A DNA stretch of 64,000 nt from Glycera tridactyla (taxonomy: Eukaryota). A model generated the notes under the pieces. It made no database searches. It was not told where the DNA came from and saw only the letters and a list, made by a program, of their open reading frames with translations. The stretch is taken from positions 76,384,001-76,448,000 of the forward strand of contig OZ286465.1 in assembly GCA_965644265.1 (NCBI GenBank). The letters are read 5' to 3'. Position numbers and translations under genes: made by a program. Shown here piece by piece: positions 1,703 through 55,070 of the stretch (position 1 is the first letter of the stretch; the number at the start of each line of letters is the position of its first letter).

Positions 1703-4700
1703 CCTAACAGCTTTTTTAAATGCTCTTCTCCAATTTCCTCATTGCTATCCATATCGTCAGGAACTATCAAGCCTTCCTGAGCCCTACTTTCGGTGCAAAG
1801 GTCGGCATGAATATAAATGCTTCGAAATGACTGAATGCCTCCCGAACTTCAGATCGGCTTAAAAACCGCCTCAAATCGAATCAACTGCCTGCTGAATTTA
1901 GGCGCACCAAAATTGATGATGACAGTGTCGATAGTAATAGGTCAGATTTCTCAAAAACGCATTTCCGATACTTCTTACCATGCGTATTCCTATTGACGAA
2001 TGCCTCCCACGTGGATCATTCAGGGATAATGCAAACAGATGAAAATGAATACTGCTATTGTGTGGTGATTGGTAACGATGATAGATGGCGGTTTGCATGA
2101 ACGCCAGTCAATGATCGAGTATGACTTATGGCCGGTTTATTTGACCATCCTGTCCCTCTCGCAAGCTGTTATAGAGACCTGATTAGATCAAACGCACGCA
2201 ATACGCTACTTAGTTTACGCCAATTCACTCTACCTGTTTATCTCCCCACCATAACCGAGACGGTTTCTTTAATATAACGCCACTATTGACATTTGGGCGG
2301 GCAGCCAATGTTTTTTGTCTCTGGTGAGAATCATAAGTGTGAGTTGAAGCATGTATATCTGAGAATATGTTAGAATTGTTTGCACATGGAAGCTTCGAGA
2401 ACAAATCCCGCTACTCATGCATGATTCTTTTTCCCTATCTGTCTGTCTGCCAGTCTGGTTAAGTGTTTATACATCTCCCTTGAGCGTCCAAAATAACTCG
2501 TCTATTTACATCTTCTTGCNNNNNNNNNNNNNNNNNNNNNNNNNNNNNNNNNNNNNNNNNNNNNNNNNNNNNNNNNNNNNNNNNNNNNNNNNNNNNNNNN
2601 NNNNNNNNNNNNNNNNNNNNNNNNNNNNNNNNNNNNNNNNNNNNNNNNNNNNNNNNNNNNNNNNNNNNNNNNNNNNNNNNNNNNNNNNNNNNNNNNNNNN
2701 NATAGACTTGGTGACGAAGCATTGAATGTTCAGGTTGTCAGCGTGTTGTTTGCTGTTCGTATCAGACTTATTCGGAGCAATATTCAGGAGTTGAATGATT
2801 CATAAGTTCGCTGTATACAGCTGTTCCCTCAGTGAATACAAATTACCTCTGCTTCGCTGAATATTTATCCGGTTATTTCCCATGAAGCTATGATGATACT
2901 CATGAGTAATATTCCTTCCATCCCAATGAATGTTGTATTCGCTGTTGTTATTATTGTCATCGATGTTTTGTTGACGGTGGTGCCCTGGTTGGCATTGATA
3001 TTGCTGTAATGCAATGCCATCATCTCTTGTCTTGCTACCTTGCTGAAGTCAGCATCATTGATGGTATTTCAATAATGGTACCTCATTTATTCGATACAAC
3101 ATGATTGGAGCATCAGATCTTGTTTGTTCTCATTTTTTGCTAGAATTATGCGAGATGAGATGGAATATTCAAGGTGGAAAGTATTCCTGAATGATTGCGC
3201 AGTTTCTAACCTGCTAATAGAACCAGAAAATCAGTATTTCATACGGAGCTCCCTCTCATAGAGTATGCGAGGTGAGTCAGATGAATGGATAAAAACCACA
3301 TTTTCCTCACCTACTTGTAGATGGGCGGACAGTTCACAATCTCATCAAACACGCTGCTGAGATGCAATGAGCAACGACGCATGAGTACGGAAATCATTGC
3401 TGATGAGCGGTACTTACAGCAAAAAGGTCGAGCGGAGCAACACATATAACACATGTTATTTGACTTTATTGTCCCGAATGAATGCTGGTTGTGAGACAGA
3501 TGGTGGAGAGTGAGATAAAGTTATGCTTACTTGGGCATGAAACTGTCTGTTACACGTGATTTATACACGAGGACGCTATTTCGCGCGACACCTAAAGCTC
3601 GGGGCGTGTGTATGAGCGTTTGCTGATCTTGGTGGCTTTTCGGTCTGTGAATCTAACCCCTTGTATCTCATGCATTCCAGTGGTGTTGTAAGACTAATGT
3701 GTCAGCTAGGGGATTAACACCGGTAGAGATCTTTAGAAAACACACTGACGAGGATTTCTGTAGCTTGAAGCTATTTAATCGTACAAGATGTTCAATACAG
3801 GTGCCGACCATTGGATGGAAGATATTTATAATATTCATGCATCCGGGTTGAATCCCAGATCCGGACAGCTCTACCCAGCCGGAAACCTGGGTTTTGGGAA
3901 GATTTCCCGATCTTCCCATCATTCTCCATAATTGTAGGACCGGGCTGAAAATCGTACAGTATTCCACAATGAAAAGATTGGTTGAACTAATCATCACCGC
4001 TACTGGTTCATGCAGCAAAGTGGGTGCATCAGCGTGCACGATGGACGGCCGTCGACACGTTTGACTGCGTCAAAGACACGGGATTCTAAGCTGCTTTCCG
4101 ACTTGCCATCCAATGAGGATGTGTTAAGGGTCAAGACATGCGTGGTCACCAACTTTCACTAACTTTGTGAAGAAAGTCACAGCACTGATTGGCAAGCACC
4201 AGTCATGCTAGGTTTCAAACTGATATTGATATCTCCGGTGTCCACGAGAGGCCACTGCCATCAATTGTGTGTGGGTGAGAAATATGAGATCGCATCCACT
4301 GCTACTTCCCACTCGACTGATTCTTTCTTNNNNNNNNNNNNNNNNNNNNNNNNNNNNNNNNNNNNNNNNNNNNNNNNNNNNNNNNNNNNNNNNNNNNNNN
4401 NNNNNNNNNNNNNNNNNNNNNNNNNNNNNNNNNNNNNNNNNNNNNNNNNNNNNNNNNNNNNNNNNNNNNNNNNNNNNNNNNNNNNNNNNNNNNNNNNNNN
4501 NNNNNNNNNNNNNNNNNNNNNNNNNNNNNNNNNNNNNNNNNNNNNNNNTGTCCACCTGTCTGTCCACCTGTCTGTCCACCTGTCTGTCTATCCATCGATA
4601 TATCCTTCCGTCTGCCTGTCTGTCTGTCTGTGGATGACCCAAGTTGGCAGCATCTTACCGAACACCTCTACCCTCCATGAAAACTCAGCTCTACTTCAAC

Positions 4701-6799
4701 TCATCAAATCTCAGACTGCCGGCCTTTTGTGAACGTGTGCGTATCCCAACGCAGTACGCTCAAGTACCTGGCTTCCTCTACAGTTACTCTGCTGTCACCC
4801 ATGACCAGTTCGCATCCAGGATTCTGAGAGTCCTTTATAATCTTCAAATCCCTGGAAACTTCTCCAAGATATTCACTGTTGAGCCTCCAGTTATGAAACT
4901 GTTGGTTTCCCAGTTGTGTCACAGGTACTGTCTTAGCTGAAGACTGCGCCATTCACCCTATCATGACACCAGTGTTTGCTGTTGAAAATGTTGTTTTGCT
5001 AGCTCTCGCATCTAACTGAGGTTGGGGTGATCTGCCAAGCATGTCGAGTACACCAGATGGTATCTGGCTTCACCAGGGACCTTTCTAGTATCATCTCGAT
5101 TGACGAACCTGGATCATCGCTCAAAATCAGGCCCTGATAGACTGTCACTGACATGTTTTTTCCTTTTCTGTCTTTTTTCAGAAGTGATTCGTGTCACTGA
5201 CTCGTGCTTATGCCCATTTTGATCAGTTCGCATTTAACATAAGTTCCCTAATTTATCCTACAAATGGTATATGCGTGTTTTGTGCGGCGAGAATGGTTAA
5301 GTCTTTTGTGATCAGCAAGTCAGTGACGTTCTTCTGATCTTAGGAGATTCTTTTAGGAGATCGAATGGTCATTCCCCGATCATCTGCGTTCTATTTCTAC
5401 TCAATTTTGAGGCATGATGGATATGATATACCCACATCATCGTAGGTTCATTTATTTCATTTGGGCTAAGTACATACCTGTCTTCTATTCTACGCCCCCC
5501 CCCCCCTCCTCTTCTCCGTAATCAATTGGTTGTCATGGATGGTATGCGTAGGTGCAATGGGAGCAACGTCTCCGACTAGCTGTTTCCACAGGCGAAATAA
5601 GGAAGCGAGCAGAGATATGCTCAATTAGTGGCATTTCAAAGGACTGGGAATTCTGAGTTTGGAGGGGAAATACGTATTTCATACTTTCAAGGTCAAGAGA
5701 TAAACAAAGAAAAGGCCATTATCCTAAAATGTTGCGAGAACCTTTTGATGCATGATTAGGAATTCCACTTCGCAGAAAATGCATTCTATGTCAAGAAAGT
5801 AATAAAACGCTGCTACAGAGTAAGTTGTGGCATCACACTATAATTCTGCTTCCATGTATTGAGAGAGATGGTGAAGGCATAATCAAGTTGCTTTGCAATA
5901 GCTGATAATATATCGGATGTGGCTTATTTCCCCTGTGGAGTTGTTGGGCGATGGGATTACTAATAATTTCGACCTGTTAAATAGAGGGATCAGCCGGTGT
6001 CCTGTTTTTACTAGCCCTGTAAGCCCAACATTAACATAACACCTTATCGCACTGCATTAAATACCCACGCACAAACGCAGACACACACTTGTGTAACACT
6101 AAAATGCATAGCTGACTACCAAGTTACTCATCCATACCATCCTACTTCGATTCCTACTTACCTACCAACCTACCCACCTACTTATCTGCCTGCTCACCTA
6201 TCTACTCACATTCCCAGGCCCTTACTACCTGTATACACACATACACACAAAGGTCGCTCGTCTACATTCGCCAATACCTGACGTGGCTGATGAAAGACTA
6301 TATATTCAGGTTTCACTATACACTCGCCTCATTATCATTTACCNNNNNNNNNNNNNNNNNNNNNNNNNNNNNNNNNNNNNNNNNNNNNNNNNNNNNNNNN
6401 NNNNNNNNNNNNNNNNNNNNNNNNNNNNNNNNNNNNNNNNNNNNNNNNNNNNNNNNNNNNNNNNNNNNNNNNNNNNNNNNNNNNNNNNNNNNNNAATTGT
6501 GAAGTTGGTATTAGTGTTGATGATGACAGTGAAGCAATACATGTGCTTCATTTAGACCATACTTGCTTGTGTGGCCGCTGGAGGCAGGGATATCATCATT
6601 GCCATCGGCGTTGACATGGCAACGTCATCAGATAATATCAGAGGTCACGGCAGCTGGCGTTGACAAGGGGGCTCTTCTCGGCAGATATAGGCTGTCATTC
6701 ATCGCACAACATGGTGCTGCCAACTATAGGCATTAAGATGTCAGTGATATCAGAGTTCTAAATCCCAGCTATGCCTTTGGGAATCATCCCTGGCCAGGA

Positions 6800-11169: not shown

Positions 11170-11491
11170 AATAAGCGCCACAACTCTCATGTGTTTTTGG
11201 AACGATAGCTGCTTGAAGCAGTTGCTTCGATTTCACTCAAACACGAACTTTACTTGATGATATTCAATCCAAGTTGATTTTCCCCTAAGGAAAATCCGAT
11301 ACACATGAACTGAGATAGCATCTATCCCGAGAATACACCATGGAATTATATTTGCATTCTCCGAACCAGATGTAATTTATAGTTCCATGTGCTACGCCAA
11401 GGATAACAGCATCACTATCAGCCAAGAATGTCTGCTTCCAACGAGCTACATATTCAAAAACGCCACATGTTAGTCCATCCTGATGGTTGAT
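11170..11491 (-). pseudogene. older antisense LINE ORF2 relic, post-endonuclease linker (left half of the split target)
   Basis: The minus strand reads INHQDGLTCGVFEYVARWKQTFLADSDAV...GKSTWI, resembling the linker FxxDL and xPWI motifs. It joins in frame with the relic at 20797-21300. Confidence 0.55.
11489..11491 (+). repeat. candidate 3-bp target-site duplication GAT (partner at 20797-20799)
   Basis: GAT flanks both ends. Removing 11492-20799 restores an in-frame antisense reading ...QEHLYPL-I-NHQDG... Confidence 0.7.
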
Positions 11492-11495
11492 GTGT

Positions 11496-11504
11496 GAGAT
11501 GGCG
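11496..11504 (+). promoter_or_regulatory. YY1-like AGATGGCG motif at the element 5' end (internal Pol II promoter)
   Basis: GAGATGGCG lies 4 nt inside the inferred 5' end, followed by a CpG-rich stretch (GACGCGCGCGAC). Such motifs are known from LINE 5' internal promoters. Confidence 0.5.
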
Positions 11505-11662
11505 TCCAAACCGAGCTGACGCGCGCGACATCGGGGAGAGTGATATGGACTGATTTATACTCATGACAGTTACATCCAGCTACAATATCACGTGGAATAA
11601 TTGCCGAAGGACTTATCAAACTAACACAGTCACTTAAAGGACCATAGTTACGGTACACCGAG

Positions 11663-13837
11663 ATGAAATTCAAACACCCTTTCAAGAACTCGACGCCAGA
11701 GAAGGTGAGCGATAATAGCCAAACCAGAACACCAGAAAACAACACATCGGAACAGTCTAGCATTGGATTCGAACCCAAAGCTGTGCCCACGCTAAAACTC
11801 AAGCCTAGAACAATGCTAGACTCCAACACGGGCGATGGGATATCTGGGTCAAGCAGGCAGAGCGGAACCACAGCTGATGAAAACGAATTCGAGCAGGGGG
11901 GTCACTCGTCAAGATATGGGGCATCATCCCCGGCGCTATGTCGGGGATACACCGAATCAGACACCGACCCCCGCGTGCACACTAAGAAGAATCTTCCTGT
12001 ATCAACCTCACCATCCTCCACGCTATGTGGGGGAAAATGCGCTAATGCTGAGGAATGTGATGCAGGTCCACTGAATCTCTCATCAGATGTAGGGTCAGAA
12101 TCATCCGTTGTCATCTATGAAAGTGCAAATGTAGACGAAGATGAGGGTGGGGACGAGGACCAGTCCCATATAGGCAGAAATGAGCGAATAGGTGTAATGA
12201 CCAGATCAAATTCGTCAAAACTAGATGTAAACTTTCTACAAAAGTCGGAGGTGCACCCCCCAAACATCGAGACGCAATATGAATCTACGATCTCCAGAGC
12301 GAAACCCCTGCCCGCCAATACCAACGCAGGAAAGGTCTCATTCATATCGCACTTCAAAGCGTGGAATGCACCACACTGGCATAGACTAACTAAATCGAAG
12401 AGATCGCGAAGCTGTGCCAGTATCAATCATCTAGCAAAAACAGACCAAATCGCCTACGAAAAAACCCAGGACGACCAGAACGTAGAATGCTCAGATGAAG
12501 CTTTCATGAACTTGCTAAGGCCGTCTAATATAAACCAAACACAAGCGCAATCATTACCTACGATAGACCCACCCAAAAGACGCAGCATGGCGAAAACACC
12601 AGCCGGGAAACAACTCAGAATGTTCGAAATCTTTAAGCCCGAATCCACTAGGAATAAGCGAGAATTTGATGTAATAACGTCTCCAGAACAAATTCTCCCC
12701 CACGAAACACCAAGTGAAAAAAGGGCACACAAAAAATCGTCATCAGCATCTCCAGAATGCCCTGCTCTTAACCTATCACTCAGTGACGATGATGGCGAAA
12801 TTAGTCCTATACAATCAGCACAAAGATCTCCGAAGCTAGATGAATCAAACATGGAAGTTGATTCCCATGCAAATGCAATCTCTCCAAGCGTTCATTCAAA
12901 TAATCCACCAGATCCACCAGGTAACACCTCGAATGTAGAGACTGCACACATGCAAAGTCTCCGCGCGAAAACCTCTCCAACAACTGATGTGTGCAAAAAC
13001 ATCAATGGAACTGGGAAAAATGATCTAGTGTCGTTGCGGGAAGAAATCAAAGCTGACCTTTACGAACTACTGAAAGCTGAACTGCGCACAGAGATAATTC
13101 ATGAAGTGACAGTTGAAGTCAAAATGAAGATCAAGGAAGAGCTACTAGAAGACATGGCAAAAGAGAAGCATGAAGACCTCGAGGCAAAGATCCAAGTTGC
13201 GATGAAGTCATACGACAAGGCCAAAGAAGAGATAAGTAAAGTGCAAGATATAGCCAAACGCAGAGAAATAAAACAAGAAATCACCACAGAAATTGGAAAA
13301 GAACTTGTCGCAATCAACATCAAAATGGACACGTTGAGCAAAAAAGTCATTAATCCAAAACATGACGATGTATTAGAACCTAGGACGCTTGAGGGGCCAA
13401 CAATAGAACAACCACCACAAGGATGTGTGAACTGTACTAAAATCGAACAATTGGCTACTCGCATTGAAAATCTTGAACTGATGGATAGACTTGGCAGTCT
13501 CGTGATTGAAGGGGTACCAATCGACCCCGAATACTCGATCAGTGAAAACGTAGCTTATCACATAAATCTCTGGTTAGGCTTGAGCATAGGTCAAGAGCAC
13601 ATAGTGAAGTGTTCCTTCCTGGGAAAGCCCGGAAAAGGACAACGGCCCGTCCTCATAAGGTTGAATAGTTTACATCTCAAACGTCACATCTTGAAATCCA
13701 AAGGTAAGCTGAGAGGGTCACATATCTTCGTGAAGGAGTTTCTCACGACTAAAAACAATAGAGTAATGTACAACGCCAGACACGCAGGTAAAGCCAAGTC
13801 ACTGGCAAAGGTATGGACCCATGATGGGCTCATTTGA
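11663..13837 (+). CDS. LINE ORF1p: long S/T/P/E-rich disordered N-terminus, coiled coil, CxxC, L1-type RRM + CTD
   Basis: 724-aa ORF. The E/K/L heptad-like region lies at about 13020-13340. The C-terminus, LELMDRLGSLVIEGVP...RPVLIRL...KLRGSHIFVKEFLT...WTHDGLI, matches the RRM/CTD ORF1 pattern of L1-type and CR1/Crack-group elements. Confidence 0.85.
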   Translation: MKFKHPFKNSTPEKVSDNSQTRTPENNTSEQSSIGFEPKAVPTLKLKPRTMLDSNTGDGISGSSRQSGTTADENEFEQGGHSSRYGASSPALCRGYTESDTDPRVHTKKNLPVSTSPSSTLCGGKCANAEECDAGPLNLSSDVGSESSVVIYESANVDEDEGGDEDQSHIGRNERIGVMTRSNSSKLDVNFLQKSEVHPPNIETQYESTISRAKPLPANTNAGKVSFISHFKAWNAPHWHRLTKSKRSRSCASINHLAKTDQIAYEKTQDDQNVECSDEAFMNLLRPSNINQTQAQSLPTIDPPKRRSMAKTPAGKQLRMFEIFKPESTRNKREFDVITSPEQILPHETPSEKRAHKKSSSASPECPALNLSLSDDDGEISPIQSAQRSPKLDESNMEVDSHANAISPSVHSNNPPDPPGNTSNVETAHMQSLRAKTSPTTDVCKNINGTGKNDLVSLREEIKADLYELLKAELRTEIIHEVTVEVKMKIKEELLEDMAKEKHEDLEAKIQVAMKSYDKAKEEISKVQDIAKRREIKQEITTEIGKELVAINIKMDTLSKKVINPKHDDVLEPRTLEGPTIEQPPQGCVNCTKIEQLATRIENLELMDRLGSLVIEGVPIDPEYSISENVAYHINLWLGLSIGQEHIVKCSFLGKPGKGQRPVLIRLNSLHLKRHILKSKGKLRGSHIFVKEFLTTKNNRVMYNARHAGKAKSLAKVWTHDGLI

Positions 13838-14368
13838 AATGAAGACAGCCAACCAGAACTGATTACTGAGACTTCAGATTTCCGCTCGACAGGTAAACCC
13901 GACCAAAGACAGGTATCAAACAACGATTCTGCCCCATCCAACAACCCAAACCCAAACGTAGCAAGTCAAACTCTACCGAATTACAACTATAATGAGAAAA
14001 ACATAGTGGGGATGGGATCCACAGAGGGTAAGAGACCTGAAACCATGGCGCATCGATCACACCCCAACACCTTGCATACACACCCAAGGCCCAATACAGT
14101 GGAATCTATCTACCAGGCGCAGACCCAATTAAACTTGACACAGGTACCTATAAACGAAAATAAGTACCTAACCAATGCACAAAACATGGGTCCACGAAGC
14201 AATCTGAGAGCAAGCGCATCCCCATACGTACCAACCTATCAACATAGATATCCCCTACAAATCATGCGCCCTCTTTTGAGGCCGACAGGCCCAATCGACA
14301 GAATACTGCCCACGCCTATTGGGTGGCAATACCCACCAGGTCCGACACGCATGCCCTGGCAATCATAA
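13838..14368 (+). CDS. in-frame 176-codon continuation of ORF1 after a single TGA (N/P/Q/R-rich tail)
   Basis: I translated 13838-14005 by hand: it has no stops and is in the same frame as 11663 and the listed ORF 14006..14368. Only the TGA at 13835-13837 interrupts a 901-codon frame. Confidence 0.65.
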   Translation, partial: NEDSQPELITETSDFRSTGKPDQRQVSNNDSAPSNNPNPNVASQTLPNYNYNEKNIVGMGSTEGKRPETMAHRSHPNTLHTHPRPNTVESIYQAQTQLNLTQVPINENKYLTNAQNMGPRSNLRASASPYVPTYQHRYPLQIMRPLLRPTGPIDRILPTPIGWQYPPGPTRMPWQS

Positions 14369-14845
14369 ACCGATTATACAACGACGATATCATGGCTTAT
14401 GTGCCAATCTATCGAAGAAATTACATTCGACGACCTGCACCTAAACTTGTAAGTACTTTGCGTTTAATCACACGACTTCATATCGAATATAAACGCACTG
14501 AACTTTAATATTCGACGAACTCAAATGTAAACAAGTCAAAGACAACACCGCTAGCAGAATAGCAGTCATGGTTGACCGATCGCAATCTGAACGACCTGGC
14601 GTGTCCTGAGCAGGACAACCACAATCAGCTGATCGACGCTCTCGAACTTCGGTGACATCGAAAAGTGAAGGCAGATACTCATATCATAAGACCAATTCAG
14701 AAGCTGGTCTTGAATTCACGCTACACGAAATAGATCCTTGAATAAAATAAAATAATATCGCAGCTGTATAAATTTAATGATGTACACCACTATAAAAATC
14801 ATATGGTTAGCAATGAAATTAACCAAAGCCTGATTATGTTCCTAG

Positions 14846-15670
14846 GTGTGCACGACTGGCGATGAAAACCAGGCCAGACAGCGCTTACACCCCACTGGGC
14901 CGGATAAACTACACAACGCTAGTAAGATACTGCGCGACTATGGGCATCCGAATATCCTATTCCTGGGAGCCTCTCAAGTATGCCGATTAGAGACAGCATT
15001 GAAGGAGCTCCATCACTCAAATGAGGTGAAACCATTCTTACGCGGCGCGAAATATCTAGGAATTGGAGGATCGAAGTTCTGGCGACTCATTCCCAATCTA
15101 AATGGCACCGAAATGAGTCCCAAAAAAATCATTCAGTATGGAAATCAATGGTCTTCCCTGTTAGACAGTGGCTGGTCCCCTGATTACATTATATTTATGG
15201 TGGGAGGGAACGACTGTGACGATTGGTACTCTCACACAGTCACCATTCGTTCGGTATACGAAGAACCGCAGGTCTCAGAAGTAATCAAGTCAGACATGAA
15301 AACTTGGGAGGAAGAGTTACTACCAGAAATAAAGGCAATGATGAAAACCGTTGCTGACACCTTTCCATCTGCGCAAATGGGATTTGTGCCCATTTTTCCA
15401 CGCAGCTGGTGGAACAAAGATACCAGAGACCTACTTCACCACCTCAACTTCAAGTTTCATAAAGACCTCAAAAAGTCTTTCAAGATTAAACCAATCGAGA
15501 TGCGCCATCTGTATGTCAAAGTACAGAAACCCCCAATTGGGTCCGGCATCCCCGATGATATCATGCCGGGTCTACTAATGAAGGATAATGTCCACCTGAA
15601 CCGAAATGGCTATCAGGTGATGCTCAGAGACCTGCTCCCCACAATCATGGATTTTTGGAAAAATAAATAG
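14846..15670 (+). CDS. SGNH/GDSL-family hydrolase (esterase), standalone ORF inside the LINE
   Basis: All four blocks are present in order: I NILFLGASQV (Ser codon 14972-14974), II GIGGS, III IFMVGGND, V KDNVHLNRNGY. There is no in-frame ATG before block I; the ORF starts at a GTG directly after a TAG. Confidence 0.85.
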   Translation: MCTTGDENQARQRLHPTGPDKLHNASKILRDYGHPNILFLGASQVCRLETALKELHHSNEVKPFLRGAKYLGIGGSKFWRLIPNLNGTEMSPKKIIQYGNQWSSLLDSGWSPDYIIFMVGGNDCDDWYSHTVTIRSVYEEPQVSEVIKSDMKTWEEELLPEIKAMMKTVADTFPSAQMGFVPIFPRSWWNKDTRDLLHHLNFKFHKDLKKSFKIKPIEMRHLYVKVQKPPIGSGIPDDIMPGLLMKDNVHLNRNGYQVMLRDLLPTIMDFWKNK

Positions 15671-16033
15671 GCTACTTGTTGACCCAAGACCATCCAGAGT
15701 TTAAATATCAGCTACGGATTAAATCAGATTGTTTGAAACACAGACGATGACATCAGATGAATACTATGAAATTGTTGGCACTTTAGCAGCCTAGACATTC
15801 AAGTGAATATTGTTTTAAAATACGTGAACCTACAATGTTATCACAATGCTGTCATGATCTGTTGTTGTAAATGCAGAACTTATAATACAGACTGGAAGTG
15901 AACTTGAGTAACTCACAACATATTGATTGAAGTCGTCGAAACTTTCTCCAGTATATGAGGTAATGCTCACAAAGAATATACACCAAAATCTGATCGCTAT
16001 TGATGCTTAGCCAACTGGTGCGTATGCCATGAT

Positions 16034-16589
16034 GGGATGAAAGGGGGAGCAGAGGGGGGAGGGGAGGATGTCGTGTTCACATATATATGTTTGATATGCA
16101 ACTCTTCTTCCTTTACCTCACTTTCTTTGACTATGGACCATCTCACAAGTGTGCCCAACTAAGTGGTGGGATGTAGGGATGAAAGGGAATAGGGGTAGGG
16201 GGACTCGACATAACGCAACCAATCCAATGTTTGTATTACAATGCAGCTACCTGCAACCTCGAACTTATGTTGTATAACAAATAAACCAATTCTGTAGAGG
16301 TTATATATCCATCAAAAAATTATACCACTCGTTAAACTAAGGCCTGCCCGATCAATCAATATCAATGAATTAAATAAGTCTATAACTTTCAAGGACACAT
16401 GAATAACAGCAAGGTTTGGGATGAGGGGAGGGGGGGGGGCGGAGTGTCCAAGCATAAATCACTCTACATATAGGTACTTTTCTCGCCATATATTTCTCCA
16501 TATTTAGCTACCTTTCTTAAAATCTGGGCGATCTCGAGCCCATGCTTGCCATCGATAGTAGGAAGGGGTGGGGTAGGGGGGGGGGGGGG
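16034..16589 (+). repeat. four sense-strand G-tract clusters (putative G-quadruplexes) in a degenerate repeat
   Basis: Clusters at 16034-16064, 16168-16202, 16418-16439 and 16565-16589. Shared flanking words are GGGATGA(AA)GGG, CATAACGCA(A/C)CCAA and TGTTTGATATG(C/T)AACTCTT. Confidence 0.7.
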
Positions 16590-17111
16590 TTGTACGTCTC
16601 ATCATAACGCACCCAAGCTGGTGCTTGCATTGTCAGGTAGCAGACTGCTGCGCCGAATCCCTAGAGGGCCTGTTATAATGTCCATCCTTACTGCATGGAT
16701 CATCTGCCCAACCTATCGTGAGAGCGGAGTACAGTATTTGATGTCTGTTTGATATGTAACTCTTATACTGTATACTTTAAATGTCTACACTTGTGATAAT
16801 CAATGCTTTGTCTGTACTATGAGTATGTGTAGTTTCCTTCAAGTGCGGGAAATGAACTTGAATCACTCTCCCCTATGATGATGTATGATCTTTTTTGATT
16901 CTGGATTTGAGATCTAGGATCTTTGTACAAACACAATCAACAAACTACTTGATAGACTCCTGTTAGGAAACAGGAATCAATACTAGAGAACACGCTATCC
17001 TTCACTGTGTCATAATAGACCCGTGAAGATCTGATCTTTGATGTCAGTAAATAAGAGGTAAATTTTTTATCTGTCTCTCAAGAAAACCCATACAGAGACA
17101 AGCCAATCAAC

Positions 17112-20066
17112 ATGCCGCGATCAAGGAAATTCAAGTATCGATTTCCGAGTAACATGCCATTAAGCAACAGCACGTACAGCAGTATGTGTCTTTCTAACTT
17201 GCCAGGCATAGTAATAGGATCCCTGAATCTCCACAGTATCAGCAGGAAACTTGAAGATCTGTCTATCCTCTTGCATCATAGCCGAATTGATATAATTGGA
17301 ATTTCGGAAACTTATTTGAATAACTCAATAAGTGATGAGGAATTAATAATTAATGGCTACAAAGCCTACAGACAAGACAGAACGAGTGCCAGCAATAAAC
17401 GAGGAGGTGGAGGGATGCTTGTTTACTACCGGGACAGATATAACCTTGAATGTATACCAAGTCTATGTTTATGCACCCCAGATATTGAATTATTGACAGT
17501 ATGTTTGTATCTCAACAAGGCTCGCCCTGTTTATATTTTCTATGTGTATCGACCCCCAGACGGATCCATAATAAACTTCATTGAAAGCCTAGATAAATGT
17601 ATATCTAGCAAAGAGCTTCATTCCACCTGTGACATCATAGTTGAAGGGGATACGAACATCAACCTGCTGGACCCACTGACAACCAATAATCAATATGTAT
17701 TATTTACGGAAAAACATGGACTGCACCATATGATGAAAAGTCCCACACGTGTCACCCCACACAGTCAAACATGTATAGATCATGTAATTGTCTCAAGCCC
17801 AGAGTACTATGTATATGGTGGAACAGTTGATCCAGGATTAAGTGATCATAATCTAGTATACATCTCACGCCACCGCCCAAAAATATCAAATTTGAAAAAA
17901 ATGTCTGAAATTAGATCAAAAAAGAATTTCAATGCAGACAACTTCAGCAAAGACCTTACAACCCAGGACTGGTCTGATGTACTAGAATGTCAAGATACGT
18001 CCTTGGCGACCGAACATTTTAACAACAAATTCTTAAGTACGCTCGATATGCATGCCCCGAAGAAACTAATTCCCCTACGAGAACATCACTTCCCATGGCT
18101 GAATGAGGACTATAGATTGTTACAGGAACTGTGTACTAAGCTTAGCAAAAAATATAACAAGCATCCTACAGCTCTATCCCTGGCTATGAAAAAGGACGCT
18201 TATCTACATCGTAATATTCTAAAGCGCTTGCTCAAGCGTGACTATATAATGACTAGATTACTCAAAAATAAAAATAATAGTAAAAAATTGTGGCAAGATA
18301 TTAAAAAGCTGTGGCCCTTCAAACGAAAGGGACACACAACCCCATGTATCGAAGATTTACCAGATGAAAATAAGACATTACATATAGCAAATAATATGAA
18401 TAAATATCTCATCAATGTGAGTACAGAACTTGATAAGAAAATTGGTCAACCAACAAATATTGGTGACGCTATGTACATGAATAAAAGTCAAAATTTTGAG
18501 TTATCTGAGATAGATGATATGACCTTACTTAAGAGCATTAAGCGACTAAGTAACTCACCAGCAATTGGAAGTGATGGACTCAGCAGCTCATATCTGAAAA
18601 TAGCGAGCCAAGGAATCCTGCTGCCCTTGAGACATATCTGTAATAAGTCCATCAATAGCAACACCTTCCCAAGTATGTGGAAAAAAGCAATTGTTACCAT
18701 ACTTCACAAAGGGGGATCACCATCTGATCTTGGGAACTTCAGGCCCATATCTGTACTCCCAGTACCTAGCAAAGTCCTTGAACGACTAGTTCACGACCAG
18801 ATTTACGACTATGTAACAAAAAACGATTTACTGTGTCGAAGGCAGTTTGGGTTCAGGAAGGGACACTCGACTGGTACATGTCTCCTTGATTTCTTAGATG
18901 GAGTTTATAGCAATGCTGATCAAGGTAGATTATGTGGTGTGCTCTTCCTGGACCTGAAAAAGGCCTTCGACACGGTAAACCACTCTGTATTACTCAGAAT
19001 TCTTAGGAACATAGGCATGGGGGAAAGTCTTATCTGCTGGGTTAGGTCATATTTGTCGTCTCGAATTCAATGTGTGAAGATTGACCAAACCAAATCTGAA
19101 TATGAATCTGTCCTATGTGGAGTGCCCCAAGGTTCAATCTTGGGGCCACTCTTGTTTATTTTATATATTGATGACATCTCGCGACAAGTGAAATACAGTA
19201 CACTGTTTCTTTACGCAGACGACACTGCGGTTTGTGTTTATGGGAATGATGTTAGCGAGATTGAGAGAGAATTGAGTCACGACTTGCTGCATATTTCAGA
19301 ATGGTTCAAGAATGTCAGGCTTTCGCTAAATCTGAGCAAAACAAAAAGTATGTTACTCGGTACTCATCAACGTATTAGACTCGCTAGAAAGCTCAACATA
19401 ACTGTAGATAATGTTGAAATACAAAATGTCACGAGATTTAAATACTTAGGAACAATGTTGGACAGCAGCCTGACATTCAAGGACCATGTGGATTATGTAA
19501 TCAAAAAGGTTGATACCAGGAGACGAGCATTGTACCATCTACGGCCCTCGATCTCCAAGGATGTTGCTATATTTTTGTATAAAACTCTCATACACCCACT
19601 CTTTCTATACGTTGACTACGTATATGATGCATGTGGCAAAACATCTGGCACTCGACTCCAGACATGCCAAAACAGATGCCTCAGCGTGATCTGTGAACGT
19701 GGCTGGCACTACTCAGCCAGTGATTTGCATAGGGAGCTAGAAATTGAATCATTAAGAATTACCAGACAGAAAAATGTGCTAATTGAAGTCTTCAAGGCTG
19801 TTAATAATTTAGGACCACCGAGAATGTCAGAACTGTTTGAAAAAATAAAACCAAACCCATGTGTGAACACCAGGTCAAACACTAGAATAGAAAATACGTA
19901 TGATCTCAGGCGAAAAAGGACCAAGTTACATTTTGCAGATGCTAATATTAGCATCAGAGGGGTGATATATTGGAACAATCTGAGCAGTGATTTGCGTGGA
20001 CATCAGACACTAAACGGCTTCAGGAATGCGATAAAGACTGTCGCACTATGTGACAGCCACCTTTAG
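17112..20066 (+). CDS. LINE ORF2p: apurinic-like endonuclease + reverse transcriptase
   Basis: 984 aa with no stops. APE motifs: GSLNLHS, ISETYL, DR..GGGM, VYRPP, GDTN, IDH, SDH. RT motifs: NFRPIS, QFGFR, FLDLKKAFDTV, GVPQGSILGPLLF, YADD, LNLSKTK, FKYLG. The terminus has WNNL...GFR. Confidence 0.97.
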   Translation: MPRSRKFKYRFPSNMPLSNSTYSSMCLSNLPGIVIGSLNLHSISRKLEDLSILLHHSRIDIIGISETYLNNSISDEELIINGYKAYRQDRTSASNKRGGGGMLVYYRDRYNLECIPSLCLCTPDIELLTVCLYLNKARPVYIFYVYRPPDGSIINFIESLDKCISSKELHSTCDIIVEGDTNINLLDPLTTNNQYVLFTEKHGLHHMMKSPTRVTPHSQTCIDHVIVSSPEYYVYGGTVDPGLSDHNLVYISRHRPKISNLKKMSEIRSKKNFNADNFSKDLTTQDWSDVLECQDTSLATEHFNNKFLSTLDMHAPKKLIPLREHHFPWLNEDYRLLQELCTKLSKKYNKHPTALSLAMKKDAYLHRNILKRLLKRDYIMTRLLKNKNNSKKLWQDIKKLWPFKRKGHTTPCIEDLPDENKTLHIANNMNKYLINVSTELDKKIGQPTNIGDAMYMNKSQNFELSEIDDMTLLKSIKRLSNSPAIGSDGLSSSYLKIASQGILLPLRHICNKSINSNTFPSMWKKAIVTILHKGGSPSDLGNFRPISVLPVPSKVLERLVHDQIYDYVTKNDLLCRRQFGFRKGHSTGTCLLDFLDGVYSNADQGRLCGVLFLDLKKAFDTVNHSVLLRILRNIGMGESLICWVRSYLSSRIQCVKIDQTKSEYESVLCGVPQGSILGPLLFILYIDDISRQVKYSTLFLYADDTAVCVYGNDVSEIERELSHDLLHISEWFKNVRLSLNLSKTKSMLLGTHQRIRLARKLNITVDNVEIQNVTRFKYLGTMLDSSLTFKDHVDYVIKKVDTRRRALYHLRPSISKDVAIFLYKTLIHPLFLYVDYVYDACGKTSGTRLQTCQNRCLSVICERGWHYSASDLHRELEIESLRITRQKNVLIEVFKAVNNLGPPRMSELFEKIKPNPCVNTRSNTRIENTYDLRRKRTKLHFADANISIRGVIYWNNLSSDLRGHQTLNGFRNAIKTVALCDSHL

Positions 20067-20391
20067 TGCATGCTGAGCATGGGTGCTGGTGTCTGGGCTG
20101 ATGGCTGCAATGATCGTTCCGGTATCTAAATCTTTGGGCTATATACTCATAACATGCATAGAAATCAAATCAAATTGCTAATGCCAATATGTTTCTAATA
20201 TCAATTCACATTATTACCAACGGTCTGGAGACTGATGCGCTATGTATCAGCCAACTCCAACCCGGGATATGGCATCCCTAACGGCCAGGAGCGGAACTAC
20301 ACTAATATACCATCACCACTAGATGGATGCTTACACAACAACCACGACAAAAGGTATGCATACAATAGCAGGGTGTATGCACGTGCTCTGT

Positions 20392-20550
20392 ATGCCTGAT
20401 AATGATATGCTGGTCTGTCTGTGGACAGCAAGCAGCGTATCAAATTGTATATATGGTAGCAAAAATGTGAAAGAATGCCTGAACAAGATATGCCGGTCTG
20501 TCTGCGAACAGTAAGCAGCGTATCTAATTGCATAGATGATAGCAAAAATG
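20392..20550 (+). repeat. 83-bp-period imperfect tandem duplication in the LINE 3'UTR
   Basis: 20392-20467 aligns with 20475-20550 with 11 mismatches in 76 nt by manual count. Confidence 0.9.
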
Positions 20551-20729
20551 AGCATGAATGGGATATAAAAGTGAAGCAAGGATGTGATTATAAGTGCTGC
20601 AACACGATTCAGAACCTGAACAGCTACAAAATGACTACCACGCACATGGTTGATATGACATCTGTATATATTGGGAAAATTGTTATGAGAAATTGTCTGT
20701 TGTTACTCGTCCGCAGAAGCGCGTAATAC

Positions 20730-20797
20730 GACTCTACGGAGTCTCACTGTACTTTTGCTGAAATACATTTTTTTACAAGTTTTACAAGTTTTACAAG
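20730..20797 (+). terminator. LINE 3' end: GACTC-TACG-GAGTC stem-loop, AATACA poly(A)-signal variant, (TTTTACAAG)3 tail
   Basis: Stem-loop at 20730-20743 and 9-mer repeats at 20771, 20780 and 20789. A stem-loop plus short tandem tail is the known 3' structure of L2/CR1-group elements. Confidence 0.75.
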
Positions 20798-22063: not shown

Positions 22064-22555
22064 ACAGATGCTTCCAGTCACCAATGCTCACAGCAATGAT
22101 GTTACTTTACCTGAGCTGATATCACACCTATTGGTAGTGGGGACACCGTTGAAGGTTGGTACAACCAGCTGACAAGAGCATCGAAAGTATCATATCAAAC
22201 AGACGGTTGGAGGCACTCCGGTTTTCAACTGAGCAGCACTGTTTACAACACTCAGCAGGGATCCTCCTCAGATGGATCACAAGGATCACCACTTCATACC
22301 AGACCTGCACCACTACAGAGGTCTGTATTATCTGCACTTTTCACTGAGCAGGCACTTCTGTGTTGAGGTAACTGAGTGGAACCTCCATGCTTCGACACTC
22401 CACTCCACTAAATGGGTACTTGGCATATAGGCAGTGATGGTGAATGAAGAGTGCTTAGCACATGCATTCAACTCTGTGCCTGTGGTTGTTTACTCCCCAG
22501 GGAGATGAAAAAGACTCGAGTTTGAACAGGCCCACCAAGGGATGTAATTGTGAAG
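22064..22555 (+). pseudogene. decayed DIRS-like (tyrosine-recombinase retrotransposon) RNase H region, copy A
   Basis: TDAS at 22064, then a frameshifted D..VSY.NR.GGT, HFIP and LSR...TEWNLH...AFN...VYSP, resembling the DIRS RH/MT consensus. Homologous to 54700-55070. Confidence 0.55.
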
Positions 22556-24426
22556 TCGAGTGAGCTCGATGACGATACCAGACTCTAAACTACTACATTT
22601 ATATTTTTATGATAACGAAGTAAAGTTTCTTAAAATATTTATATAAGTGAAATTTCTATGACACTGGTGGGTAGATTGTTGGAATTTGTCTTAGTCAAGT
22701 GGGATAAATCGCTCTTGGATGATGTGATAAGGAGATCATCCAAGATGTATTGATTGTATCTTCGGTTTCATGTAGTAGTTGGTCCATGCTTTAATGCATC
22801 TTATCTGTGACATACATATTTACCACTTGGTTATTTCCATACACTTATGCTTTCATAACACAGATAAGTCATGTCTGAGTGTTTTTTCTCGACATACTTG
22901 AATCTACCGATCTGTGTGGTTGGTTTTGGAATCAATAGATACCTATTCATGTTTCAGACGCTGATAGAAAAGTGAGTGAAATGGATAACAACAGAAATTG
23001 AGCTTTTCGTAATATTGTCAATTCAACCTTTACAAGTGATGGCAATAGCTATCTTTTTTTCGACCCACTGCAGGATACTGTGACATATGAGCTTATTTCA
23101 TATGAGTATCATTGAAATTGGTCGATGGAATCACCATATCAGTTCAGCCGATAGGGGAAAGTATTCACTGTGCGCCTTGGCGCCCTTGTTCCATTACAGG
23201 CTAAAATTCACATCTTTGTGCGTGATTAATATCAATGGCATAGGTAGCATTGGGATGATTCAATAGGATCCGAATCACTGTGGTATTGGCGCCAATTGGA
23301 GCCATAGATGGTCCTCAGTATGTTTCACACAGATTCCCATGAGCCCTCACTCGGTACCACTTTGTGTAGTGATTATAATATCTTCGGAACGGGTTCCCGG
23401 GAAACATGAGCTGATAAGATGATGTAAGGAGTGGCTGAAGTAATCACTGTATCCTGATTATTCACGACATGTCCTCTCGTCTATTATGTAGAGCATCCGA
23501 TTGGATTCAGAAATGAGATTCTGTAATATGAATAGCAAAGCTAATGGATCTTTTGTCCCATACTATGGAGAGCACGACCGCCCGTGGTCCCTTATAAGCC
23601 TTGTTGGATCACACATATAATACATGTATGTATATCTTATATACTGTCCTTTGTCGGGAAGCAGTGCCCGTTACACATGTGGGTATCTATGTCCGCCTCC
23701 ATCCATTTACAATTGTCGTTATGCCATATATGGTTTATCTGTGTCGAGAAGGCAGATATTTCTTGACTTGATATATCTTTTTTAGGAACTCCCTTACTAG
23801 AATCCTCAAAATGTTAGAGACTGTACATGTTCGACTGTAAATGCGTTGACGATCATGTATACCATCTGAGAATAAGCATTGTTCTACCACGCCAGAGCGG
23901 ATTACGGTCCTCCTGTGCGGTGATCGCTAGCGGGCGCACCCCCTCTGCTTCGTTAGCAGCCTGCTGATAATTGCCGCTGTATGGAGGGGGTGTGCGTATC
24001 AATTGTAAGATCATGCTCGAGGACTGTGGTAGCGCGACCCCGGTCCTCCTTCCTAGTTATCTGTTTCGCCGACAGAGGCGTTAGTCTGTATGCATGATTA
24101 TTCAGATCGGAGTAGTCTCAATTGAACATATTTTCTCATTTATTCCACTATAAACTCAGTTTGATATGTTTTTAGATTGAAGTGCACTATTTCTTCATTC
24201 TTGATTATATTCTAATTGAGATATATCGTGATATGGCTCCTTGATTTCATTTTTGAGAAGTAATTCATCGCAACCCTATTCTAGTGATATTGGCCCCATT
24301 CAGATATTCAATGTTGCCTATTTTCTGGCCATTTTTTGACAATTTTACAGGGTTTTCAGGCGTAATCATCATTGATCAGTGTTGCTTAGACATTTATCAT
24401 TCATTAATGGTGTGGCAGTACTATGA

Positions 24427-50400: not shown

Positions 50401-52524
50401 ATGTGTATTTTGTCTGGTGGTGAATGATAAGTTTTGGCTGATAGTGGCCTCTTGTTATGATCCGGTCGTTCCATTGACCGATGTTTTCTCTGTTATGGAT
50501 GAGTCGATAGTAACTACCCAAAAGAATATTGAGATATTAGCAATTTACGCAGTGGCCTTTATCACCATCACCATCACCATCACCACCATCATCCACAACA
50601 ATCTGTGGGATAAAAGAGAGACTCGAGACAGTGAGGTGGATTGGCGTATGTCAAGTGACAGTGACATCTAGAGACTGTTTTATTGATGGTGGCGCCGCCT
50701 TGTGTTTGTTCAATTGATCACGCTGTTGTTGGCCCCGCGCCGCCATAGTGGCGTTCTTATCACGATTTCCACTTGGTTGAAGAACTTGAAAGGCCTATTT
50801 CTCGCCGACAGGACAAGGCAAGATGGTCACGTCATATTAACCACTCAAACAAGCTGAAGGAATATGTAAATCACGCCCACACAACGTACACCCCACAGAG
50901 AAGACGCTTAGAAAAGCCGTCTACTTGGCGGATAATGACTGTATCGACACGATCCACCTGCAGTAACCATGGAGATGATATTTCTCATTAGGTAAACGGG
51001 GTAGTCGCGGCTAGAAAACGGACCTAATATTCCATCACGTCCATCTAGTTTGTTTTGCAATACATAATAGACTGGTGGAATATCATAGATTATACCCGAC
51101 ATTCAAGATGCAGCAATATTTGCAAGACTATGCAGGGATACAGATCGCTCGTCATGGTATCTATGCACCATTCACTAGACTATGCATAGCTGAAGTTCAT
51201 TCATAATAGTATCTGAGTAACATCAACCAGACTATATAGAGAAGATCATTCATAATCTAATCAATATTCACTAGACTATGCAGCGATGAATGTCGATCAC
51301 GATTGTTGCTAGACTTTGCAGTGATAATTTTCATTTATAATGGAATTTGGTGACCCATTACTATGAAGAAGTTAGGATAATGGATCTCATCAAATCAGAT
51401 TTGAAGATTCAGTGAGATCCATAAAATGTTGTATGGAGAACCGTGATGTCATCATGTGCGATTGGGATTGTTGATTTTATTCACCTCACTGATCATCAAT
51501 ATGGCTATTTCCAATTGAATCCTGGACTTTGGAAGGTACTACAGGAAATGCAAGATCATATGGTAAAACTTGGTTTATACAGAATGGTTGATTTATGCAC
51601 AGTATCATACGTAGGGGGGATCTGAGAGTGATTTGAGACACTCAAGATAGTTCAGTCGTGCTGCTATATGGACACATAGCTTGCCATAGTACGAATTATG
51701 GAAACTCCAAAAGTGAGTAAAGTCTGTGATGGCGTTACAGAGAGATCGTGCTACTCTTCGTATATCCAGAAAGACATCCTGCAAAGCGAGTCCGATCCAT
51801 CTTCTTGTTGTAATCCCACGGTAGTGTAATAGTCCTATCCATCAGGCTCGTAACAATAACCTTCAGATGTGCCTTGATTGCTCATTTTTTTCTAAGAGAA
51901 AGTTTTAGCCTTTGTAGTCTTTCGAAGCCGTATTCACTGTAACTGGAGACTTCCTGAATCCGTTCACCCAGTGGCTACAGGGCGAGAACTGTTGTCTCTT
52001 TCCCTCTTCGACACCCTTTAACGGAATAGAATGTTACACGTTAGACATTCGAATACAATTTCTTATTGAAATTGGATGTGACAGCTCGAGTAGTGTCCAG
52101 TAGGCGTGGGCATTTTCTGAAAAGGTTCCGCATCTTGTTGTGAGCACTTTAGCTATACCTATACCCCCCGACATTGTTGCCATTATTTGATAGGGACGTG
52201 TCATGATCAAGATGGTTTGGGTTTTCCTTCAAATATTATTCACTTCTCCAAAAGCTTTTTGAATGAATATGATATAGGATTGGTCCGGAGGTATTGGTGA
52301 TATGTGTGTGACTGAGCAGTGTTCCCATGTGTCTAATGTACCGTTGCGACTTATGTATTCATTATTCGTCAAATCAATAATATGTGCACATGTTCATTTT
52401 ATCAACGGGTTAACATGACTAGTTCTTTCCTGCAACTGATGATTCCATGCGACCCATGATGTGACAAAAAGTTATTTTGTGTTCATGTTACTTATGTGTA
52501 TATGTGTGACTACCTTAAAATTGC

Positions 52525-53883
52525 GACTGATGGTTTCATGTGACTAATGTGTTCGTGCGAGTATCGTGTTCATGAGACTTTATTTGTTTATGTGACTAAC
52601 GAGTTCTTGTTACTAACGTATTAATGTGACCGATGGTTTCATGTGACTAATGTGTCCATGCAAGTTTCGTGTTTATGAGACTTTATTTGTTTATGTGACT
52701 AATGAGTTCTTGTTACTAATGTATTAATGTGACTGGTGGTTTCATGTGACTAATGTGTCCATGCGAGTTTCGTGTTCATGAGACTTTATTTGTTTATGTG
52801 ACTGATGAGTTCTTGTTACTAACGTATTAATGTGACTGGTGGTTTCATGTGACTAATGTGTTCGTGCGAGTATCGTGTTCATGAGACTTTATTTGTTTAT
52901 GTGACTAACGAGTTCTTGTTACTAACGTATTAATGTGACCGATGGTTTCATGTGACTAATGTGTTCATGCGAGTATCGTATTCATGAGACTTTATTTGTT
53001 TATGTGACTAATGAGTTCTTGTTACTAATGTATTAATGTGACTGATGTTACATGTGACTAATGTGTTCATGCGAGTATCGTATTCATGAGACTTTATTTG
53101 TTTATGTGACTAATGAGTTCTTGTTACTAATGTATTAATGTGACTGATGTTACATGTGACTAATGTGTTCATGCGAGTATCGTATTCATGAGACTTTATT
53201 TGTTTATGTGACTAATGAGTTCTTGTTACTAATGTATTAATGTGACTGATGTTACATGTGACTAATGTGTTCATGCGAGTATCGTGTTCATGAGACTTTA
53301 TTTGTTTATGTGACTAATGAGTTCTTGTTACTAATGTATTAATGTGACTGATGGTTTCATGTGACTAATGTGTTCATGCGAGTATCGTATTCATGAGACT
53401 TTATTTGTTTATGTGACTGATGAGTTCTTGTTACTAACGTATTAATGTGACTGATGTTACATGTGACTAATGTGTTCATGCGAGTATCGTGTTCATGAGA
53501 CTTTATTTGTCTATGTGACTAATGAGTTCTTGTTACTAATGTATTAATGTGACTGATGGTTTCATGTGACTAATGTGTTCATGCGAGTATCGTATTCATG
53601 AGACTTTATTTGTTTATGTGACTGATGAGTTCTTGTTACTAACGTATTAATGTGACTGATGTTACATGTGACTAATGTGTTCATGCGAGTATCGTGTTCA
53701 TGAGACTTTATTTGTTTATGTGACTAATGAGTTCTTGTTACTAATGTATTAATGTGACTGGTGGTTTCATGTGACTAATGTGTTCATGCGAGTATCGTGT
53801 TCATGAGACTTTATTTGTTTATGTGAATGATGAGTTCTTGTTACTAACGTATTAATGTGACTGGTGGTTTCATGTAACTAATG
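52525..53883 (+). repeat. satellite array, about 13 units of 102/103 bp
   Basis: The GAGACTT anchor occurs at 52574, 52677, 52780, 52883, 52986, 53088, 53190, 53292, 53395, 53497, 53600, 53702 and 53805. Each unit contains ATGTGACT sub-repeats. Confidence 0.98.
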
Positions 53884-54699: not shown

Positions 54700-55070
54700 G
54701 GTTGGCGAGTCAGGTGGTGCCACTTCGCTTCTCAACTGAGCAGCACTGTTTGAAATAGCTAGCACCGCTCCTTCTCGGATAAGTGAGCAACATGGACAAA
54801 GTTCACCTTTCCATACTGGACATGAACCATTACAAATATCTGTATTATTCGCACTTCTCACTAAGGAGGCGCTTTGTGCTGAGGTAACTGAGTGTAACCT
54901 CTTTCCTCCACCCCCTCACTTCACCCAGGTGTGAAGGGGCACATGGGTAGTGATGGTGGAGTGCTTAGCCCATACAGTTGATTTTGTGTTTGTGGTTGTA
55001 TACTCTCTTGGAGATAAAAAGGTTCCGGCATGAACAGGCCCACCGACGGTTGTAATTGTAATATTGGGTG
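54700..55070 (+). pseudogene. decayed DIRS-like RNase H region, copy B
   Basis: Shares exact words with copy A: TCAACTGAGCAGCACTGTTT (22225/54732), TGAGGTAACTGAGTG (22364/54880) and TGAACAGGCCCACC (22523/55031). Confidence 0.6.

Follow-up and report, generated by a model that had tools for sequence, protein, structure and literature searches.

A probable spliceosomal intron within the separate esterase gene of a three-ORF, CR1-type LINE from Glycera tridactyla

How does a long interspersed nuclear element (LINE) express an esterase whose open reading frame (ORF) offers no usable start codon, and could it carry an intron in that gene, given that LINEs are copied through RNA and an intron is therefore expected to be lost at the first round? 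These questions are raised by a 64,000-nucleotide (nt) stretch of genomic DNA from Glycera tridactyla (contig OZ286465.1, 76,384,001–76,448,000; hereafter the window), which carries on its plus strand a LINE of ~9.3 kb with three ORFs in the order ORF1, a separate SGNH esterase, and ORF2 with an apurinic/apyrimidinic endonuclease (APE) and a reverse transcriptase (RT) (Table 1). The window, which includes simple repeats and gaps in the assembly, resembles genomic DNA of an animal. In the esterase frame the first in-frame ATG is codon 90 (nt 15113), past the block I Ser (14972) and the block II Gly (15068). A preliminary description of the locus had proposed retrovirus-style differential splicing, in which either of two donors is joined to an acceptor just upstream of this frame and unspliced RNA serves as the genome; its coordinates and product lengths were all reproduced (first in-frame ATG, TTAAC, AG, donor 1 with 288 aa, and donor 2 with 293 aa and a 397-nt intron). 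The best explanation of the whole, to which we assign a probability of roughly 0.7, is a three-ORF CR1-type LINE with an old 397-nt intron in its esterase gene, so that spliced mRNA and unspliced genome would be distinct RNAs.

A full HMMER scan with the predicted second exon returned 112 relatives, of which two long repetitive matches (P0217 and P0224) were dropped; the block-I motif could be located in 62 of the 110 relatives used, and 34 of these 62 reach the junction. No esterase homologs were found by a word-index search. A PIYRR-like motif stands 54–56 residues before the block-I Gly, in contiguous sequence, in 13 of the 34 homologs with a long enough N-terminus, and the corresponding distance in the spliced window protein is 55 residues. 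An N-terminal profile built solely from these 13 homologs gave the codons at 14392–14448 a score of 23.1, the highest among 46,210 stop-free 19-mers in the six frames of the window, with the runner-up at 8.1. The leader exon ending at donor 1 scored -14.0, and the sequence just upstream of 14846 scored -15.7, -22.8 and -26.5 in its three frames. The exon carrying PIYRR is intact, and thus appears to be under selection.

The 397 nt between the two exons show the features of a U2-type intron, namely GT and AG ends, a branch-point candidate (TTAAC at -27) and a pyrimidine tract before the acceptor AG (14844–14845, in TTCCTAG), and their removal restores the conserved protein. Donor 2 (CTT/GTAAGT, cut at 14448/14449) follows the ATG at 14392 (A at -3, G at +4), and the spliced product has 293 aa; left unspliced, the exon-1 frame meets a stop 20 codons into the intron. 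By a generic matrix of textbook frequencies that was not fitted to the host, the scores of both sites were moderate: donor 2 ranked 8th of 128 GT sites in 11400–14820, and the acceptor 9th of 580 AG sites in the element. Donor 2 stands far above chance because of protein homology, which donor 1 lacks. On this homology we predict with high confidence that donor 2 is joined to the acceptor at 14845, and 14449–14845 is very probably a real intron. The structure of the intron RNA was not unusual (z -0.25), and a self-splicing or otherwise structured intron was rejected on that result. The locus is most likely better described as having an intron inside the esterase coding sequence than as an ORF lacking its start that receives a 5' leader in the manner of env; of the earlier retrovirus-style scheme, the need for the 14845 acceptor, donor 2 as its partner and the implied unspliced genomic RNA were upheld, whereas donor 1 as the main route was not. 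The fold of the product is assigned confidently, by modelling, to SGNH: exon 2 matches Pfam PF00657 (expectation value (E) 5.5e-6), its predicted model has a pLDDT (predicted local distance difference test) of 95 and matches SGNH folds at Z 14–15, and the catalytic residues S, G, N, D and H are all present in the sequence.

The same homologs bear on the age of the intron. Once the motif spacing is aligned, the codon of the window acceptor corresponds to offset -42, and exactly there 11 of the 34 homologs have Gln (Gln background, 3.2%); neighbouring offsets hold 0 to 2 (0 at -41; 1 of 33 at -43). The residue before this footprint Gln is always F, L or M, and residues of the T-rich codon type occupy 32 of 37 positions just upstream of it, compared with 29 of 103 for the remaining homologs and with 5 of 55 immediately after the Gln. 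This combination would result from a polypyrimidine tract and its CAG being read through in phase 0 by a gene caller. A twelfth case (P0243), seen afterwards, has its Gln at offset -43. In a quick tree of 56 rows, built from the sequence downstream of the junction and rooted at the midpoint, 10 rows with the Gln footprint fell into three clades, and the window adjoins an 18-row clade (support 95) that holds all rows with contiguous PIYRR. The simplest reading of this distribution suggests an ancestral intron that was lost in the sister clade and a few other rows. That the intron is ancient and shared with distant lineages is probable on this sequence comparison, and with moderate confidence its loss in the sister clade can be ascribed to retrotransposition of spliced RNA.

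Relatives with DNA were obtained as 12 contigs from one metagenome scan with the PIYRR group, and 10 loci cover the esterase N-terminus. One of them, L002, is a 10,385-nt genomic contig with a complete element in flanking DNA, in which ORF1 and the esterase are followed by a spacer of 1.1 kb, then ORF2 and a (TAA)n tail; its identity to the window is 40% over 973 aa in ORF2 and 31% in the esterase. In L005 and L011, as in L002, ORF1 lies directly upstream of the esterase, and this shared order argues that the three-ORF layout is a feature of the clade and not a nested insertion. In the window and in these three relatives alike, the esterase is separate and downstream of a stop-terminated ORF1. 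The ORF1–esterase spacers measure 145 nt in L002, 374 nt in L005 and 494 nt in L011, with several ATGs, whereas that of the window has 23 nt, containing neither ATG nor AG. The L002 esterase (3423–5774) has a C-terminal low-complexity extension of ~480 residues rich in Y, H, N, Q, S and T, which is open in 4 of 4 cluster members.

If the present copy carries an old intron, as is likely, it must come from unspliced RNA, and we propose that spliced RNA would supply the esterase and unspliced full-length RNA the new copies. Two overlapping AATAAA signals lie inside the intron, downstream of ORF1 (at 14741 and 14746; 14741–14751), and cleavage there may give an ORF1-only message, analogous to the production of copia Gag via splicing and premature termination (PMC5580714). 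If the RNA were spliced and also cleaved at one of the two AATAAA that follow the esterase (15662 or 16280), where we propose that most spliced RNAs end, the result would be an ORF1–esterase message without the 3' hairpin, from which the esterase might be translated by ribosomes re-initiating at ATG 14392, 23 nt past the ORF1 stop; AATAAA occurs 12 times on the plus strand of the element. ORF2 is preceded in both full-length elements by an ATG-rich spacer of more than 1 kb (41 ATGs in the window; 16 ATGs in the 1.1-kb spacer of L002, 5775–6870), and so is unreachable by simple scanning. Unspliced read-through RNA would retain the 3' hairpin and repeats. ORF2 proteins of stringent-type LINEs copy only RNA with their own 3' tail (PMC4176376); under our proposal truncated spliced messages would thus remain uncopied, which would explain the persistence of the intron. 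The arginine-rich exon 1 may act as an RNA-binding arm, by analogy to the arginine-rich motif (ARM) of ZfL2-1 (PMC3905857).

Several observations weigh against an old intron in a working element of this kind. The position of the window itself in the tree has a support of 85 and lies in no starred set, and the root is a midpoint. All 10 relatives with DNA over the junction site are intron-less there; intron-less forms, which the preliminary description had suggested looking for, were thus found, but in distant families. Searches of genome contigs and viral contigs returned no locus for the proteins with the Gln footprint, whose introns and residence in LINEs are putative, and since these 11 proteins are related they are not 11 independent cases. 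Donor 2 and the acceptor are moderate by the generic matrix, and the poly(A) and re-initiation steps are proposed from motifs. The matching spacers of L002 and L005 contain no AATAAA. ORF1 of the window has an in-frame TGA at 13835–13837, after which the frame is open for 176 more codons; in L002 and L005 the frame is uninterrupted there, so this ORF1 copy is probably damaged, and with a premature stop the present copy may be inactive.

Other explanations of the locus can be weighed on the same evidence. It is unlikely that the intron is real but belongs to an esterase that is a passenger transcription unit, driven by an internal promoter in the ORF1 tail, with genomic RNA keeping the intron through inefficient splicing: the homology evidence for the intron would serve this explanation equally, the long ATG-rich spacers (41 ATGs before ORF2) suggest that the ORFs are not all translated from one message, and the esterase is followed by a candidate poly(A) signal, but the short ATG- and AG-free distance between the ORF1 stop and ATG 14392 is the spacing expected for re-initiation. 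Still less likely is that the 397-nt segment was inserted recently into this copy or its family, by intron gain or disruption, with GT-AG ends by chance and an unrelated Gln footprint; here we place it at very low odds. The segment is absent from each of the 10 relatives for which DNA spans this position, and one copy of the window's family was read. An insertion sits poorly with a Gln footprint at the same codon and phase in homologs and with a downstream exon that keeps its open frame and all catalytic residues; furthermore, no target-site duplication beyond GT was found at the intron ends, and no second copy of the intron was matched elsewhere in the window or in the loci of the relatives. 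Transcription from the TATAAAA at 14791 without splicing, with the esterase starting at ATG 14836 and 2 nt lost in this copy, has a close to negligible probability. The TATA-like box and the ATG both exist, the latter out of frame, but the upstream frames score at best -15.7 (the others, -22.8 and -26.5) and the real motif lies 397 nt farther upstream, so that this earlier model was abandoned.

Env-like splicing from 11704 to 14845 as the source of the main esterase message is improbable, ranking between the passenger unit and the recent insertion. Donor 1 ranks 2nd of the 128 GT sites in 11400–14820 and is one of two sites scoring at least 6.0 in the 9.3-kb element, and donors as strong occur at 0.16 per kb on the plus strand of the window. 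In L002 the best of 118 donors (CAG/GTGAGC, nt 570) lies 205 nt past the AGATGGCG motif and can be joined in frame to the top-scoring acceptor among 590, which is found 11 nt upstream of the esterase ATG. An acceptor of at least 3.5 lies within 30 nt of the esterase ATG in 3 of the 10 relatives (background, 5% of 665 ATGs at a score of at least 3), but 2 of the 10 have no AG within that distance, and acceptors ahead of the ATG could also serve trans-splicing. The L002 parallel is suggestive for the intron-less clade, as a set of features picked after the fact from one full element; the 5' regions of the window and L002 do not align beyond two anchors, and 316 of 500 shuffles score equally well. 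It is the sole backing for donor 1 as the main route, which we set aside since the join skips the intact conserved PIYRR exon (-14.0, vs. 23.1 for that exon). Donor 1 would mark a minor isoform at most, and it is doubtful that this isoform occurs. For an acceptor upstream of 14392 that would keep exon 1 downstream of donor 1, the sole in-frame candidate noted has GAG, which is seldom used as an acceptor, at its end (14280). Acceptors at the ORF2 start (17205 in the window, 6886 in L002) were rejected, as in relatives these residues belong to conserved coding sequence; donor 1 is also out of phase with 17205.

For ORF1, an RRM-type domain is likely on the basis of structural modelling. Its top fold match among 48,161 chains was the RRM of human L1 ORF1p (2yko; Z 6.0, root-mean-square deviation 2.9, 70 aligned residues), a modest match that lies within 1 Z of unrelated rows and has a Foldseek E of 0.16. 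ORF1 gave no Pfam match and no PDB sequence match, a word-index search found no homologs, and the Atlas lead was Baculo_FP, on 12% of one cluster. The frame after the TGA contains a proline-rich tail similar to the tails of L002 and L005. The ORF1 of L002 shifts frame at an A-rich run (2417–2447) inside the RRM/C-terminal region.

ORF2 matches Pfam PF00078 (E 1e-36), PF14529 and PF03372. In the CR1 group, RNase H and a C-terminal CCHC knuckle are not expected, and ORF2 gave no RNase H or CCHC-type Pfam match at E up to 1 and no CCHC pattern past residue 800. The element has the N-terminal APE and the RT of this group in ORF2, and a 3' hairpin followed by short tandem repeats without poly(A), a trait of the group for which the stem-loop is described in PMC4176376. 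By sequence, it fits the CR1 group (Jockey superfamily); the RT tree comprised unnamed relatives only. No long terminal repeats (LTRs) were present among the flanking direct repeats listed, and Pfam matches place an APE endonuclease where an LTR retrotransposon or retrovirus has an integrase; the APE likewise sets the element apart from Penelope-like elements, which have a GIY-YIG endonuclease or none.

Table 1. Features of the LINE and their positions in the 64,000-nt window (UTR, untranslated region)
Feature	Position	Strand	Remarks
5' end and 5' UTR of the LINE (likely)	11497..11662	+	Boundary inferred; opens at the AGATGGCG motif
ORF1	11663..14368	+	Low-complexity long N-terminus, charged helical region, likely L1-type RRM and C-terminal domain, proline-rich tail
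Donor 1 (AAG/GTGAGC)	11702..11710	+	Cut 11704/11705; after ORF1 codon 14; 207 nt past the AGATGGCG motif
Esterase exon 1	14392..14448	+	19 codons; arginine-rich conserved PIYRR motif; ATG 23 nt past the ORF1 stop
Intron (inferred)	14449..14845	+	397 nt; phase 0; GT-AG spliceosomal; branch-point candidate TTAAC 14819; each of the three frames has stops
Esterase exon 2, SGNH hydrolase	14846..15670	+	S 14972, G 15068, N 15209, D 15584, H 15593
Non-coding spacer	15671..17111	+	1,441 nt; 41 ATGs; three G-rich runs
ORF2, APE endonuclease and RT	17112..20066	+	Frame intact, open from 17055; YADD at 19212
3' UTR	20067..20797	+	Hairpin 20730–20743, then three TTTTACAAG repeats (20771–20797)

The motif at which the 5' end opens recurs at nt 365 of the full-length relative L002, upstream of its ORF1; in both elements it also opens a very short upstream ORF (11499–11522 in the window, 367–381 in L002). 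No target-site duplication of the LINE of at least 7 nt was found. The G-rich runs of the spacer lie near 16042–16066, 16417–16442 and 16560–16590. Sister contigs from two runs, X1 and X2 (75 and 73 contigs, with shares of 0.09 and 0.07; their RNA status is a guess), span the esterase–spacer and spacer–ORF2 boundaries. Four joints were present in these contigs, all at 18815–19122 and thus away from both proposed splice junctions, and cover over 14392–14930 was thin and counts neither for nor against splicing. The 3' UTR contains an 83-nt tandem duplication (20392–20557; 83% identical), which is covered by contigs of both runs.

Retroviral and gypsy env genes are expressed from spliced subgenomic RNA, with unspliced RNA as the genome. 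Ty1/Copia elements producing shGAG (PMC5580714) resemble our proposal in the same way, with a spliced subgenomic RNA for one protein and unspliced RNA as genome. All of these are LTR elements packaged in particles, whereas the probable intron of the window sits inside an accessory gene. Spliceosomal introns survive retrotransposition in Penelope-like elements, as they would in the window, and this retention has been called highly unusual among retroelements, with its significance unknown (PMC8557442); those elements belong to another RT class, with GIY-YIG or no endonuclease, in contrast to the APE and LINE-type 3' tail found here. Splicing of non-LTR RNA, with integration of the spliced copies, has been described for human L1 spliced integrated retrotransposed elements (SpIREs; PMC5860796) and for Drosophila TART (PMC1636488). 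However, L1 splicing inhibits retrotransposition and leads to dead ends, whereas splicing in the window appears necessary for an element-encoded enzyme, and the TART introns, unlike that of the window, lie in antisense RNA.

Zebrafish ZfL2-1-type CR1/L2 elements (type IV ORF1) share with the window an APE-RT LINE body and, upstream of ORF2, an SGNH esterase that has the catalytic residues S, G, N, D and H and is preceded by an arginine-rich motif (PMC3905857, PMC4120745, PMC13343379). In type IV elements, however, ORF1 itself encodes the esterase, behind a coiled coil, with no RRM-type ORF1, whereas in the window the esterase is a separate middle ORF, larger (293 aa) and most likely split by an intron. 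The ZfL2-1 esterase was absent among the fold and sequence matches listed, an absence compatible with kinship. In the literature, no esterase-containing ORF1p in Repbase had an RRM (PMC3905857), the esterase type was found only in vertebrate subgroups (PMC4120745), and the string 'splic' occurs 0 times in the main texts of PMC3905857, PMC4120745 and PMC13343379. CR1/L2/Daphne elements with an L1-like (Tnp22, type II) ORF1 resemble the window in their helical region, RRM-like and C-terminal domains, APE-RT ORF2 and repeat tail without poly(A) (PMC4120745, PMC13343379), but as described there have two ORFs only, with neither an extra esterase ORF nor an intron. A GDSL/SGNH esterase as an additional ORF is found in bdelloid Vesta LTR elements and Athena Penelope-like elements (PMC5408684), the hosts being LTR or Penelope-like elements in that case; the word 'intron' does not appear in that paper's main text. 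Across the compared papers, which also include PMC7140322 and PMC11203168, the esterase is ORF1 and never accompanies an RRM, and intron retention is a peculiarity of Penelope. Among the top-ranked literature matches, a set that does not extend to Repbase Reports, we found no intron inside a LINE ORF, no three-ORF CR1-type LINE with a separate esterase, and no RRM-type ORF1 beside a separate esterase ORF.

If the preferred reading, an old intron in the esterase of a CR1-type LINE, is true, an APE-type LINE would need splicing and yet keep its intron, and LINEs would be able, like retroviruses and copia elements, to keep the RNA that serves as genome distinct from mRNA. Within ORF1p, the RRM and the esterase have been suggested to duplicate each other's function or to exclude one another (PMC3905857); with a likely RRM-type ORF1 beside a separate esterase, the role of the esterase could be tested apart from RNA packaging. 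A broader scheme, which we offer tentatively and consider possible though not favoured, extends this to the whole three-ORF clade as a retrovirus-like RNA programme: an ancient intron at one codon (in lineages ~25% identical) would gate the esterase, distinct RNAs for ORF1, for the esterase and for the genome would arise through alternative splicing and the choice of poly(A) site, and where the intron was lost, a 3' splice site would have been regained just upstream of the esterase ATG and would be served by a major donor ~205 nt from the 5' end.

Other repeats were noted in the window. Just upstream of the LINE lies a degenerate inverted repeat (11188–11225 and 11428–11470), probably a separate repeat resembling a miniature inverted-repeat transposable element (MITE), and several X1/X2 contigs begin matching at 11408, preceded by shared foreign sequence. 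A dispersed repeat of ~400 nt is present as two diverged copies (74–76%) at 22201–22604 and 54708–55112, and a tandem array at 52431–53858 has a period of 102–103 nt with an apparent two-unit higher-order repeat.

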